DNA from: Escherichia coli 042
GTDB taxonomy: Bacteria > Pseudomonadota > Gammaproteobacteria > Enterobacterales > Enterobacteriaceae
NCBI RefSeq assembly: GCF_000027125.1
Contig: NC_017626.1
Direction: 5' to 3' (one strand)
DNA: 64,000 nt
Shown here: positions 4,316 through 63,128 of the stretch, piece after piece
Numbering within the stretch: the first letter of the stretch is position 1
Layout of the letters: each line of letters starts with the position of its first letter
The notes under the pieces: model-generated
What the model was told of the DNA's origin: nothing
Databases searched by the model: none
Seen by the model: only the letters and a program-made list of their open reading frames with translations
Translations under genes and position numbers: made by a program

Positions 4316-4804
4316 TTAAGCGCGTAACTTAACGTCGATCGCGTCTTGTGTGCGGGTGCGTGGCGCGTCGTGAGTATGCTGACGACCAGACACATCCAGC
4401 ACTTCCTGGTTATTAACCAGTTCGCCTAAAGTAATGTTGTTGAGAAAACCGGTGAGACGGTCGCTCAAATCACGCCATAGCGCGTGGGTCAGGCATTTAT
4501 CGCCGCCCTGGCAGCCGCCTTTACCCTGACAACGGGTGGCATCTACAGATTCGTCAACGGCGCTAATCACTTCGCCAACGGCGATGCTGCTGGCATCTTT
4601 GCCTAACAGATAACCACCGCCTGGTCCACGTACGCTGGAAACCAGACCATTTTTACGCAGACGGGAAAACAGTTGTTCCAGATAAGAAAGGGAAATTCCC
4701 TGACGTTCGGAAATATCAGCCAACGGTACCGGGCCCGCTTCAGAGTTGAGCGCAACGTCAAGCATTGCGGTCACGGCATAGCGCCCTTTAGATGTCAGTC
4801 TCAT
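4316..4804 (-). CDS. iscR: Rrf2-family Fe-S transcriptional regulator IscR
   Basis: 162-aa [22 protein letters not shown] with Rrf2 helix-turn-helix and cluster-ligand cysteines. Confidence 0.95.
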
Positions 4805-4805
4805 G

Positions 4806-4940
4806 TCTTACTTCACCTCAAACTCGCCCCTGCCCGGGGTTTTTTATTGTAAAAGTGGGGGTATTGCATAGCAGGGTCAAGTCTGACATTCCCGAGTAAA
4901 TTGGTCAACTATTTACTTGACTGATTTAGTCGGGTATTTA
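4806..4940 (-). promoter_or_regulatory. iscRSUA promoter/operator region with IscR type-1-like sites
   Basis: Upstream of the iscR start; reverse strand contains ATAGTTGACCAATTTACTCGGGAAT and AATACCCGACTAAATCAGTCAAGTAAAT, matching recalled IscR autoregulatory sites. Exact boundaries are inferred. Confidence 0.5.
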
Positions 4941-4981
4941 ACCTTCAGTGCCATTTTTTTATCGTGGCGTTTGTACCTGTT

Positions 4982-5066
4982 GTCGGATGCGACGTGAACG
5001 CCTTATCCGACCTGAGGCTCTGTGCACTGTAGGCCTGATACGACGCGTTAAGCGTCGCATCAGGTA
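4982..5066. repeat. REP/BIME: two palindromic units between iscR and trmJ
   Basis: GTCGGATGCGACGTGAACGCCTTATCCGAC and TGTAGGCCTGATACGACGCGTTAAGCGTCGCATCAGG are typical REP (palindromic unit) sequences. Confidence 0.8.
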
Positions 5067-5073
5067 ACCACTA

Positions 5074-5814
5074 TTATTCGGCCTTATTACCTTTATTCTG
5101 CTGCTCTATAGAAGCCAGAATCCCGCGCAGGATATTCAATTCCTGGCTTTCCGGGCGCGCACGGGTAAACAAACGACGCAATTTATTCATCACCTGCCCC
5201 GGATGGTTTTCACGAATAAAACCGGTTGCCAGCAGCGTTTGTTCGAGATGACCATAAAAACGCTCCAGATCATCGACCAGCGGATACGGCGTCTCTTCAT
5301 GCTCAACCTGCTCGCCATTTTCCTGAGTTGCCAGCCAGGCCATGCGCACTTCATAGGCAATAACCTGAACCGCCATCGCCAGGTTCAGCGAACTGTATTC
5401 CGGGTTAGCCGCAATGGCGACATGATAATGGCATTTCTGCAACTCTTCATTGGTCAAGCCGACGCGCTCGCGACCAAAAACCAGCGCCACCGGGGTATTT
5501 GCCGCTTCAGCGACGCTTTTCAGACCGCATTCGCGCGGGTCGAGCATCGGCCACGGCAGCGTGCGCGAGCGTGCGCTGGTACCCACCACCAGGCTACAAC
5601 CGGCTAACGCTTCGTCGAGCGTATCGACGATGTGAGCATTACCAATCACATCGCTGGCCCCTGCTGCCAGGGCAATCGCCTGGGAGTCAGGTTTCACCAG
5701 TGGATTAACCAACCACAGATTGGTTAATCCCATTGTTTTCATGGCACGGGCAACAGAACCCATATTGCCGGTGTGTGTCGTCTCCACCAGCACAATTCGA
5801 ATATTTTGCAGCAT
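5074..5814 (-). CDS. trmJ: tRNA (cytidine/uridine-2'-O)-methyltransferase TrmJ (SpoU family)
   Basis: 246-aa [33 protein letters not shown]; SPOUT methyltransferase family. Confidence 0.9.
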
Positions 5815-32160: not shown

Positions 32161-33588
32161 TTATTTCGTGTTTTTCGACGACGGCAATTCAATGCGGAAG
32201 CAAACGTCTTGCCCGCTCTCGTCGACCAGATACAGTTCCCCTTGCATACGGCGAATACAATCCCTGGCAATGCTTAATCCCAGACCGCTGCCCTTCACCG
32301 CCCCTTTTCGCTGGTGGCTTCCCTGAAAAAAGGGTTCAAAGATCATGGCGCGTTCCTCTTGCGGAATGGGTGTGCCTGTATTGATGACATCAATATAAAC
32401 CCGCGCGCCATGTAAACTGCTGCGAAGGCAAATGTTACCGGATTCAGTCCCGTAGTGCACAGCATTGGAGTAAAGATTATCCAGTACGCTCATCAGCAGC
32501 ATTGGCTCCGCCAGGCAAGCTGTTGCTTGGAGATCGACGTCGGTATGCATCATTTTAGCCCGTGCGGGCAGGCTATGAGCAGAAACTACTGTCTCCACCA
32601 GCGGTGCTAATTCAACATTCTCCAGTTCCACCGCACTGTCCGCCTGTTTACGGTTGTAATCAAGCAGTTGTTCGATCAGTTTTTGCAAATTGCGGCTGCT
32701 GCTATCGAGGATGCTCACCACCTCTTTTTGCTCTGGCGTAAGCGGCCCGACAACCTGGTCAGCCAGTAATTCAGTGCCCTCGCGCATACTTGCCAGCGGC
32801 GTTTTTAATTCATGAGATAAATGTCTTAAGAATTGATGACGTTGGGATTCCAGCCATGACAGGCGCTCACTTAACCAAAGAATACGTTGCCCAACCGAGC
32901 GTAACTCGCTCGGTCCACTGAACGAGACACTATTGCCCAGAGAACGCCCTTCCCCCAGCCGGTTGATCATGCGCTCGATATTTTTCACCGGACCGATAAT
33001 CATCCTCGTGAAAAGTAGCACCATCACCAGACTCACCAGAAATAACACCAGCGATTGCCAACCAAAATATTGCCCACGTTCGGCGATTTCACGCTGAAGT
33101 TGCTGCCCACGAGAGAACACCACTGTGCGCGTGGCCTGCACCATTTCGGTATTGGCACTGGCAAAGGCTTCAAGACGCGCGGCGGCGGCGGCATCGGGAC
33201 CACTGTTGTTACACTGAAGTTGGGCCAGATTGTTCAAGTCCTGACGCAATGCCTGGTAAAGTTTATCGTCTGGCAGTACGCCTGCGTGGGCATCGAGCAT
33301 TTCGCTGTAACGCTTGCGCTGGCTTTGATAAACCTTCGCAAGCGTAGGGTCGTCCAGCACGCAATACTGACGGTAGCTACGCTCCATCTCCAGTGCCGCG
33401 TTGGTCATCGCTTCACTACGCCGGGCATCAATAAGCGTAGTGCGGTTAACCAGCGCCGCCTGATCGCTAAGTGCATTCAGGCTTTGCCAGGCTTGCCATG
33501 CCAGCACCAACAGGGGTAGCAGAATCAGCAAAAATGCCAGCATTACCAGTTGTCGTAATGAGCGGGGAAAAACGGGCCAGCGTTTCAA
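32161..33588 (-). CDS. glrK: Sensor histidine kinase GlrK (QseE)
   Basis: ORF-track entry 32161..33651; the recalled protein begins MKRWPVFPRSLRQ, which here corresponds to a TTG initiation codon at 33588-33586. HisKA H-box (LRHLSHELKTPLASM) and ATPase domain present. Confidence 0.8.
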   Translation of the reverse strand: MKRWPVFPRSLRQLVMLAFLLILLPLLVLAWQAWQSLNALSDQAALVNRTTLIDARRSEAMTNAALEMERSYRQYCVLDDPTLAKVYQSQRKRYSEMLDAHAGVLPDDKLYQALRQDLNNLAQLQCNNSGPDAAAAARLEAFASANTEMVQATRTVVFSRGQQLQREIAERGQYFGWQSLVLFLVSLVMVLLFTRMIIGPVKNIERMINRLGEGRSLGNSVSFSGPSELRSVGQRILWLSERLSWLESQRHQFLRHLSHELKTPLASMREGTELLADQVVGPLTPEQKEVVSILDSSSRNLQKLIEQLLDYNRKQADSAVELENVELAPLVETVVSAHSLPARAKMMHTDVDLQATACLAEPMLLMSVLDNLYSNAVHYGTESGNICLRSSLHGARVYIDVINTGTPIPQEERAMIFEPFFQGSHQRKGAVKGSGLGLSIARDCIRRMQGELYLVDESGQDVCFRIELPSSKNTK

Positions 33589-33646
33589 GGTGTTACTCTC
33601 GTCAGACGCGAATAGCCTGATGCTAACCGAGGGGAAGTTCAGATAC

Positions 33647-33830
33647 AACAAAGCCGGGAATTACCCGGCTTTGTTATGGAATAAGGCGGTGCCTAACTCG
33701 ACGTTTCGCCCGATGGTTGATATAGCTACGCTGATATCAGAAGTTGGACGGCAGGCACCTTGTTGTGCGTCATTCGAATTTTATGTAGCACGTCCCGAAG
33801 GGGCTGACATAAGTCGGTGAATGAGCCACT
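33647..33830 (-). ncRNA. glmY: Small RNA GlmY
   Basis: Reverse strand reads AGTGGCTCATTCACCGACTTATGTCAGCCCCTTCGGGACGTGCTACATAAAATTCGAATGACGCACAACAAGGTGCC... and ends in the terminator AAAGCCGGGTAATTCCCGGCTTTGTTGT, matching recalled GlmY sequence; length 184 nt; no ORF. Confidence 0.85.
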
Positions 33831-38051: not shown

Positions 38052-38307
38052 AAGTCTCTCGTCTTCTAAGCTTTCGGTGTACCCAAGGGGGGAAACGGGC
38101 GTCATTATAAAGAATCTGATGCGCTGACGAAACCGTTTGCGTGGAAATAAAATCACCATCGCGAATTAGCAACGCGTGCCGCCAATGGCTGTAATAAGTT
38201 GCCAACTGGCGCAGGTTTACGCAAAATGCCGCTCATTTATGAGTAAACCTTTCACTATTATTACGTTTTTTCAAGCTGGGACGCGCACGACACAGAGAAT
38301 TAACTAA

Positions 38308-40409
<2,102 letters not shown>

Positions 40410-40421
40410 CTATGCTTTACT

Positions 40422-41057
40422 CTATTCCAGTTGCTGGAGTTCACCGCGCGGGGTTACCCGCCAACGATGCTGGCAGAAATAAAGCAGCGGGTTGTCCTGA
40501 TTACTGTCGCTATAGCCACTGTACAGCCGCAGCGGCGTGCCGATTTTGCGCTCCAGTTGCGCGACCTTTTCATGTCCCAGACAACGCATCGTCAACACCC
40601 AACCACCATAGCCACGCTGAATTTGGCTGGCGATAAGATTAACCCGCGGCAGCCAGGGCGTATCGAAATAAACCGCTTCAACCAGCGGCTGCGGAGAGCC
40701 GGTAATCAACCAGATATCAGCATCGGAACTTAACAGGTAGGTGGTTAATCGCTCCTGAACCAGCGGAAAGGCGGTAACATTGTCACGAAACCAGCGTACG
40801 AAATCGGCCTGCAACGTCTGTAAACGTGCTTCATTGTGACCAAAAGTGCACCCCCACAGAAGCAGACTCATCGGCCAGCGTGCCGCACGACCTTTTATCA
40901 ATAACGCAATGGCAATGATCGGCAACAGCGGCAGGACAAGTAACGCATTCAGCGGTTGGCGATGCAGTAAATAACGCAAAAAACTGCCGAACATATCCTG
41001 CTGATGCAATGTTCCATCTAAGTCAAAAAACACCACACGACGCTCGTGAGTTGCCAA
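40422..41057 (-). CDS. pgpC: Phosphatidylglycerophosphatase C (HAD-type)
   Basis: 211 aa; HAD motif I FFDLDGTL near the N-terminus. Confidence 0.88.
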   Translation of the reverse strand: MATHERRVVFFDLDGTLHQQDMFGSFLRYLLHRQPLNALLVLPLLPIIAIALLIKGRAARWPMSLLLWGCTFGHNEARLQTLQADFVRWFRDNVTAFPLVQERLTTYLLSSDADIWLITGSPQPLVEAVYFDTPWLPRVNLIASQIQRGYGGWVLTMRCLGHEKVAQLERKIGTPLRLYSGYSDSNQDNPLLYFCQHRWRVTPRGELQQLE

Positions 41058-56874: not shown

Positions 56875-57404
56875 TGAACTGCACCCCAAATGTTGGACAT
56901 AATCTGACATCTGAAGGTGCAGTTTATGAAACATTCATTTGAAGTAAAACTTGCCGCTGTAAATCATTACCTGGCTGGTCATGCAGGCATCATTTCTACG
57001 GCAAAACTCTTTCAACTTTCTCACACCAGCCTCTCACACTGGATTAATCTTTTTCTTCTTCACGGTCCTCGGGCACTGGATTGCAGACACAAGCGTAGCT
57101 ATTCTCCTGAAGATAAACTTTGCGTGGTTCTTTATGCTCTCGGGCATTCTGAGTCTCTACCCCGGGTAGCTGCCCGGTTTAACATTCCCAGCCACAACAC
57201 GGTTAAAAACTGGATAAAAGGCTACCGCAAATCTGGTAATGAGGCCTTTATCAGGCGCAGGAAGGAGAAAAGCATGACCCGTTCTGATGATACCCATGAA
57301 AACGAGGCAAACATGACGCCGGAAGAGATGAAGAATGAGCTGCGTTATCTTCGCGCAGAAAATGCATATCTGAAAGCCATGCAGGAGCATCTCCTGGAAA
57401 AAAA

Positions 57405-58306
<902 letters not shown>

Positions 58307-63102: not shown

Positions 63103-63128
63103 CCGGGGCGCATCTTGTGCCCCGTTTT
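63103..63128 (+). terminator. Rho-independent terminator of trxC
   Basis: CCGGGGCGCATCTTGTGCCCCG followed by TTTTCTCC, 6 bp after the trxC stop. Confidence 0.75.

Follow-up and report, generated by a model that had tools for sequence, protein, structure and literature searches.

Two genes in this part of the Escherichia coli chromosome raise the question of where their proteins begin. In the window (the whole stretch of 64,000 nucleotides that was analysed), a program-made list of open reading frames gives glrK (qseE) as 32161..33651 on the minus strand, 496 aa starting at a TTG, and tadA as 39861..40397 on the minus strand, 178 aa starting at an ATG. The sequence-only reading had placed both N-termini further downstream, at the TTG codons 33588-33586 and 40364-40362; the listed proteins run 21 and 11 codons, respectively, beyond these. 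We are nearly certain that glrK and tadA are indeed translated from the UUG codons at 33588 and 40364 of the minus strand, and that the longer forms are artefacts of the list.

The 64-kb window runs from hscA to patZ and is about 97% identical to K-12 at the nucleotide level. It aligns with K-12 MG1655 in three collinear blocks (96.6–98.4% identity), the main structural difference being an IS3-family insertion between srmB and yfiE. The part between 32 and 41 kb was found in 5,424 of 5,426 complete E. coli genomes, with 100% identity in the best ten strains listed. All the K-12 MG1655 RefSeq genes were mapped onto the window, and the curated starts of glrK (b2556, NP_417051.2, 475 aa) and tadA (b2559, NP_417054.2, 167 aa) fall exactly on the two TTG codons; the window belongs to a different E. 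coli lineage, with a few amino-acid changes (for example L16M in TadA), but the start codons, frames and lengths of the two genes are identical to those of K-12. The NCBI PGAP annotation of the collinear strain RM14516 has the same starts (qseE 32161..33588, tadA 39861..40364). The RM14516 record served for annotation only: compared position by position with the window it shows 5072 mismatches, its second part being offset (by 17 nt at yfiE and 24 nt at tapT), and many of these mismatches probably come from indels that shift the register, not from divergence. The comparative set was obtained by scanning species-representative genomes with TadA, which returned 80 enterobacterial loci with 10-kb flanks; once the window is added, 81 loci are available for tadA and 68 for glrK.

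The glrK coding sequence (32161..33588, minus strand, 475 aa), defined by mapping, PGAP and Pfam, codes for a sensor histidine kinase with the Pfam domain order HAMP-HisKA-HATPase_c, and it has glmY directly upstream and qseG and glrR downstream, which identifies it as GlrK/QseE. Its TTG start codon (33586..33588, minus strand) is followed by AAA CGC TGG CCC GTT TTT (KRWPVF). The tadA coding sequence (39861..40364, minus strand, 167 aa), supported by mapping, PGAP, Pfam and a PDB match, codes for the tRNA adenosine(34) deaminase: the protein matches dCMP_cyt_deam_1 (7e-32) and MafB19-deam (2e-40) in Pfam, and it aligns with PDB 1z3a with an E-value of 8e-112, including the HAEIMAL and PCVMCAG segments that carry the HAE and PCxxC motifs of TadA. 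The TTG start codon of tadA (40362..40364, minus strand) is followed by TCT GAA GTC GAA TTT AGC CAC (SEVEFSH), and in this short form the deaminase domain begins at residue 7-8. The first residue of the solved E. coli structure, 1z3a, is the one that corresponds to the TTG.

The behaviour of these two codons across species is that of start codons. At the glrK start, TTG is found in 65 loci and GTG in 3, out of 68; at the tadA start, TTG is found in 66 loci and GTG in 15, out of 81 (one of these 15 GTG being a one-codon alignment offset). Neither column contains an ATG or a synonymous leucine codon. The internal TTG leucine codons evolve differently: TTG is kept on average in 18% of the species at the five such codons of glrK, and in only 11% at the single conserved one of tadA, CTG being found in most of the other cases; over the internal TTG codons of these genes the range is 11–23%, again mostly with replacement by CTG. 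The variability at the three codon positions is 0.16/0.04/0.36 from codon 2 of glrK and 0.14/0.08/0.32 from codon 2 of tadA, as opposed to flat profiles upstream (0.44/0.44/0.45 for glrK, and 0.37/0.35/0.41 in the 33 nt before the tadA start). In both genes, a TTG that is only ever replaced by another start codon thus precedes a conserved N-terminus, and the codon periodicity sets in exactly there, while the upstream extensions are interrupted by stops or shifted out of frame in other species. The alignment of orthologues, which had been suggested as a check of the two starts, agrees with both. Since selection generally favours AUG (Belinky et al.), the complete absence of ATG at the start of glrK and tadA in 65–81 species suggests, on the basis of these alignments, constraint rather than drift.

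Could the long forms nevertheless be the real proteins, GlrK having 496 aa from TTG 33651 and TadA 178 aa from ATG 40397? Both extensions are open and in frame in the window, ATG is the start codon that is preferred in general, and the 178-aa TadA was the K-12 annotation until 2014. Besides, the Salmonella TadA deposited as PDB 3ocq has an N-terminal extension that aligns with the 11 additional codons. We find this extremely unlikely. Regarding glrK, the 21-codon extension has no codon periodicity and is interrupted by an in-frame stop in 27 of the 68 loci, and its first codon lies outside the mRNA, as explained below. Regarding tadA, an extension of the E. coli length contains an in-frame stop in 19 of the 81 loci, the upstream ATG is not preceded by a Shine-Dalgarno sequence, and published experiments point to the TTG.

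The region upstream of glrK shows what the listed start codon is part of. The gene of the small RNA GlmY lies directly upstream, on the same strand (33647..33830, minus strand; Rfam RF00128, 147 bits); the Rfam match covers 33683-33830, and the K-12 glmY feature (ncRNA b4441) maps to about 33647-33830. The hairpin of the GlmY terminator is at 33653-33669, and the U-tract that follows holds both the listed TTG (33651-33649) and the next codon, also a TTG; this TTG TTG (33646..33651, minus strand) likely provides the -35 TTG of the qseE promoter. The published transcription start site of qseE is 25 bp upstream of the start codon (PMC6075780), which corresponds to about position 33613 in the window, 38 nt downstream of TTG 33651. 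The codon from which the 496-aa form would be translated is therefore not in glrK's own mRNA. Considering the position of the transcription start, TAGCAT (33620..33625, minus strand) would be the -10 hexamer of the sigma-70 promoter of qseEGF; the same hexamer, or a close variant, is found 30–33 nt before the glrK start in 65 of the 68 loci. Within the 25 nt of the leader there is no further start codon in frame. The lacZ activity driven by the qseE promoter fragment is low (PMC6075780), which fits with the promoter, the Shine-Dalgarno sequence and the start codon all being weak.

The ATG upstream of tadA is also embedded in what looks like a transcription signal. It occupies 40397-40395, within TGTATAATGCGCC (40391..40403, minus strand), which would consist of the -10 box of a tadA promoter and a G+C-rich discriminator. 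The heptamer TATAATG is present in 81 of 81 loci, 31–35 nt before the tadA start codon, but no more than 39 of them have its ATG in frame, because the distance to the start codon varies by non-multiples of three, and in only 32 is it both in frame and followed by an open extension. A motif that is invariant regardless of the frame is, judging from its conservation, a DNA signal and not a codon. We infer that TATAATG includes the -10 box of tadA, in which case transcription would start a few bases past the ATG. The match to the sigma-70 consensus is perfect for the -10 element (TATAAT, in all 81 loci), and by eye limited to 3 of 6 bases for the -35 element. No transcription start site of tadA was found in the supplementary tables of Kim et al. 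2012 and Ettwiller et al. 2016. A scan for consensus promoters picked up neither the published promoter of qseE nor the TATAAT of tadA; it is uninformative here because the -35 boxes are weak.

The scoring of ribosome-binding sites, another check that had been suggested, supports the proposed start in one gene and does not discriminate in the other. The TTG of tadA is preceded, at a distance of 8 nt, by the Shine-Dalgarno sequence GGAG (40373..40376, minus strand), which is found in 81 of 81 loci with a spacing of 6–10 nt. The energy of the duplex with the anti-Shine-Dalgarno sequence, -6.1 kcal/mol, is close to the median for all the curated starts of the window (-5.9 kcal/mol), to be compared with +0.2 kcal/mol for the upstream ATG. 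The glrK TTG has no more than a weak Shine-Dalgarno-like sequence, GAGAG, at a distance of 7 nt (33596..33600, minus strand); GAGA(G) is kept in most loci, but its -3.4 kcal/mol is in the range of random positions and the listed TTG scores -3.9 kcal/mol.

The start of tadA is also established by published experiments. In the TetRP ribosome profiling of Nakahigashi et al. 2016 (PMC4909307, supplementary file 3), the tadA start is moved from position 2695912 of the 2006 record to the TTG at 2695879, 33 nt downstream of the former ATG; this yields the N-terminus MSEVEFSH... and matches the 2014 record. In a project aimed at a 57-codon genome (PMC13287592; preprint PMC11195188), which relied on an outdated annotation, the TTG of tadA was taken for an internal leucine codon and recoded to CTA. 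Once the parental copy of tadA had been removed, the doubling time was 429 min, and it was 44.9 min after the start codon had been restored; the Ribo-seq coverage of tadA in the same project starts at the revised start (PMC13287592; PMC11195188). The upstream ATG was intact in the recoded design and growth was nearly abolished, therefore this ATG cannot supply enough TadA. Published ribosome profiling and genetics thus show that UUG is the functional start codon of tadA, and the initiation-site data that the sequence-only reading had called for are available for this gene.

Regarding GlrK, N-terminal or initiation-site data were sought in the TRAINSPOTTER N-terminomics and TetRP tables (PMC4909307), and none were found. 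The gene glrK is absent from the TetRP re-annotation tables because the 2006 record already had its corrected start. Unlike what is seen with the TetRP set, the support for the glrK start comes from the mapping of the transcription start and from the comparative data, not from profiling.

One may also imagine that in Escherichia and Salmonella tadA has two starts, the TTG being the main one, and that transcripts reading through from pgpC into tadA give a minor long TadA from the ATG. The end of pgpC is just 25 nt upstream and on the same strand; in each of the six Escherichia loci the ATG is in frame and followed by an open extension, with which the extended Salmonella form (3ocq) aligns; TetRP reported two start sites for many genes (PMC4909307), and the recoded strain whose TTG had been destroyed still grew, if slowly. 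This slow growth can equally be explained by weak initiation at CTA. The TetRP entry for tadA is a "new annotation" at the TTG 33 nt downstream, although it leaves room for some signal at the old ATG; the ATG has no Shine-Dalgarno sequence, and the extension, which most genera have lost, shows no sign of coding. All in all, we consider that a second start at the ATG is very unlikely, and that the UUG is the start of TadA.

Conversely, the true starts might be further downstream, at the first in-frame ATG of each gene, that is, Met16 of GlrK (33543) and Met12 of TadA (40331). Both ATGs are close to the TTGs, and residues 2–7 of TadA are variable between species. However, neither ATG is preceded by a Shine-Dalgarno sequence (-0.9 kcal/mol for Met16 of GlrK, +0.1 kcal/mol for Met12 of TadA), and codons 2–15 of glrK and 2–11 of tadA already show third-position variation with conserved amino acids. 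Ahead of its first membrane helix, GlrK carries the basic residues K2, R3, R9 and R12. Recoding the TTG would have been harmless if tadA started at Met12, but it was nearly lethal, which rules out Met12 as the tadA start. These downstream starts were rejected on the basis of codon periodicity and genetics, and there is hardly any chance that they are used in place of the TTG codons.

The UUG starts of both genes therefore stand against starts on either side: the N-terminus of GlrK is supported by K-12 RefSeq, PGAP, the 68 loci and the published transcription start, and that of TadA by K-12 RefSeq, PGAP, the 81 loci and two published experiments.

The over-extension of N-termini is not particular to these two genes. 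The sequence-only reading had announced at least 15 cases, which turns out to be an undercount: the longest ORF starts upstream of the curated start in 26 of the 60 mapped genes that were compared (43%). All eight genes that it had given as examples are among them: iscS (+8 codons), purL (+36), yphG (+31), trmN/yfiC (+62), yfiF (+25), hcaR (+31), rpoE (+11) and rseA (+12). It was also right that the yfiP (tapT) ORF runs through a terminator. Its listed TTG (63115) lies within the hairpin of the trxC terminator (63104..63124, plus strand), in the loop; the hairpin is followed by TTTTCTCC. Extensions running into a neighbouring gene had likewise been mentioned, and there are six of them: hscA enters hscB, glrR enters qseG, pdxJ enters recO, rseA enters rpoE, rpoE enters rseD, and yfiC enters srmB. 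The Shine-Dalgarno sequence is better at the curated start in 22 of the 26 over-extended cases. The proportion of 43% is not above chance: if three codons count as starts and three as stops, the probability that a start is met before a stop when walking upstream is 0.51 with the base composition of the window and 0.56 with its trinucleotide counts, so that 51–56% of over-extended genes are expected. Over-extension is a trivial property of the longest-ORF rule, not a biological feature.

Two neighbours of glrK and tadA also start with TTG, which the sequence-only reading had missed. The TTG of mltF (38308..38310, plus strand) is supported by K-12 mapping and PGAP and has an in-frame TAA directly upstream; that of pgpC (yfhB; 41055..41057, minus strand), supported by the same annotations, has a strong Shine-Dalgarno sequence (-8.6 kcal/mol), and every locus has TTG or GTG at the pgpC start. 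The initiation region of mltF (-15 to +27) is nearly invariant in nucleotides, synonymous sites included. TTG thus initiates four out of five neighbouring genes (glrK, mltF, tadA and pgpC). With a TTG frequency of 4.35%, the probability of at least four TTG starts out of five is about 2e-5 per set of five adjacent genes, and about 0.07 such runs are expected genome-wide, in what is a post hoc count; the expectation is still lower with E. coli's TTG frequency of 2–3%.

In Klebsiella and Raoultella, the codon equivalent to the mltF start is CTG in 9 of 9 loci, and the upstream TAA has been lost. The 27 codons upstream are aperiodic (0.11/0.14/0.13, versus 0.05/0.01/0.15 downstream), and this upstream frame is broken in one Raoultella genome. 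The KKLK n-region of the signal peptide is conserved, with synonymous changes. The published length of K. pneumoniae mltF, 1617 nt, is that of the ORF that starts at the -27 ATG. In these two genera, the mltF locus looks like a case of either CUG initiation or another over-extended annotation. If true, a CUG start of mltF in Klebsiella and Raoultella is hidden in annotations behind a 27-codon upstream extension.

It may be that the run of TTG starts is not a matter of chance, and that it results from selection for a low, possibly IF3-sensitive, translation, with mltF of Klebsiella and Raoultella initiated at CUG. The four genes, which may be seen as low-abundance envelope and tRNA functions, keep TTG or GTG, and never ATG, over about 80 enterobacterial species. 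This is a tentative proposal, which we consider unlikely.

The origin of the two artefacts can be described as follows. They arise from taking the first ATG, GTG or TTG that follows an upstream stop, and in both genes this codon appears to belong to a transcription signal rather than to coding sequence. The ATG of tadA would be formed by the last two bases of the invariant TATAAT -10 box and the next G, and the listed TTG of glrK is within the U-tract that ends the GlmY terminator, where the -35 region of the qseEGF promoter would also lie. Since they lie within transcription signals, the genes' own mRNAs would start downstream of them, with a leader of 25 nt for glrK, as shown, and probably about 25 nt for tadA. 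The 30S subunit would then be placed by the Shine-Dalgarno sequence 7–8 nt upstream of the start codon, GGAG for tadA and the weak GAGAG for glrK. The initiator fMet-tRNA reads UUG by a first-position mismatch, so the protein starts with Met, and the efficiency of initiation is below that of AUG. UUG, which belongs to the three canonical start codons of bacteria, represents about 3% of the starts of E. coli and initiates at 10–100% of the AUG level (Hecht et al., 10.1101/063800).

Starts of this kind have already been described. Only 81 UUG starts had been annotated before TetRP, and several new ones were confirmed by lacZ fusions (PMC4909307); tadA itself belongs to these re-annotations. The AUU starts of infC and pcnB (cited in Hecht et al., 10.1101/063800) are likewise sub-optimal codons kept over long evolutionary distances, and they serve to set the level of expression. 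The UUG of glrK and tadA differs from them in being a canonical start codon, and autoregulation of the infC kind is not known for these two genes.

Both TTG starts are correct and already known: RefSeq records the two of them, and two experiments have demonstrated that of tadA. What is known about E. coli stays unchanged, and the finding carries little practical weight. One should not take a longest-ORF track for a set of gene models, about half of its N-termini being too long by construction. The use of the outdated ATG of tadA has had a cost: in the recoding project an essential gene lost its true TTG start, and the Salmonella structure 3ocq was deposited with a spurious extension. As to the biology of these genes, the weak start codon, TTG or GTG across genera, probably helps to keep GlrK and TadA scarce, and UUG together with weak promoters would hold down the amounts of both the sensor kinase and the essential tRNA deaminase.

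In both annotations mapped onto the window, that of the curated RefSeq genes of K-12 MG1655 and the NCBI (PGAP) annotation of the collinear strain RM14516, four of five adjacent genes start with TTG: glrK (33588, minus strand), mltF (38308, plus strand), tadA (40364, minus strand) and pgpC (41057, minus strand), purL being the sole exception. With UUG making up about 2–4% of starts, fewer than 0.1 such runs would be expected per genome, a figure that should be read as that of a post hoc count. Across 65–81 enterobacterial species, the start codons of these four genes are kept as TTG or GTG; none of the species has ATG there.

The initiation region of mltF, CAGAGAATTAACTAA TTG AAAAAATTAAAGATTAATTAT (38293-38334, plus strand), hardly varies in nucleotide sequence among about 78 species. 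Since this near-invariance extends to synonymous third positions, the alignment suggests that the region is under a constraint that is additional to that on the protein sequence. Candidate causes include the need for an unstructured, A/U-rich initiation region, or the presence of a binding site for a regulator or an sRNA.

In all nine Klebsiella/Raoultella loci of the enterobacterial scan (L026, L030, L048, L050, L051, L052, L055, L062 and L067), the codon equivalent to the mltF start at 38308 is CTG, and the TAA upstream of the start is absent. The published annotation of K. pneumoniae mltF (1617 nt) begins at an ATG at codon -27. The 27 codons that precede the CTG are without coding periodicity, and the upstream frame is interrupted in L050. 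Either mltF of Klebsiella/Raoultella probably starts at CUG, or its annotation is over-extended.

The two annotations disagree on the start of yphC: the K-12 start is ATG 18251 (minus strand; 353 aa; Shine–Dalgarno (SD) duplex energy -6.1 kcal/mol), whereas PGAP retains the longest-ORF ATG 18284 (minus strand; 364 aa; -4.5 kcal/mol). No SD can be detected (+0.4 kcal/mol) before the curated start of tapT/yfiP, ATG 63166 (plus strand). The longest-ORF TTG 63115 (plus strand) has a better SD score, and falls within the loop of the trxC terminator. Initiation of tapT might be leaderless or depend on an A/U-rich region.

About 1.4 kb between srmB and yfiE (approximately 56875-58306) have no K-12 counterpart; an insertion at the same place in another strain is annotated as a frameshifted IS3-family transposase, and the ORFs 56917-57447 and 57552-58274 (plus strand) are consistent with the two-frame layout of IS3. 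The iscR-trmJ spacer (4804-5074) is about 180 nt longer in K-12, and 88 nt of the window match two K-12 places, a pattern that probably reflects a polymorphic repeat element or duplication.

The convergent genes mltF and tadA overlap by 4 bp at their 3' ends (39861-39864), as in K-12. Upstream of tadA, TGTATAATGCGCC (40391-40403, minus strand) has the form of a perfect -10 box followed by a G+C-rich discriminator. Mapped transcription start sites for tadA were not found in the published tables that we searched. Because this element is essentially invariant in 81 species, conservation suggests that the pgpC-tadA spacer holds a putative promoter dedicated to tadA, which is possibly sensitive to stringent control.
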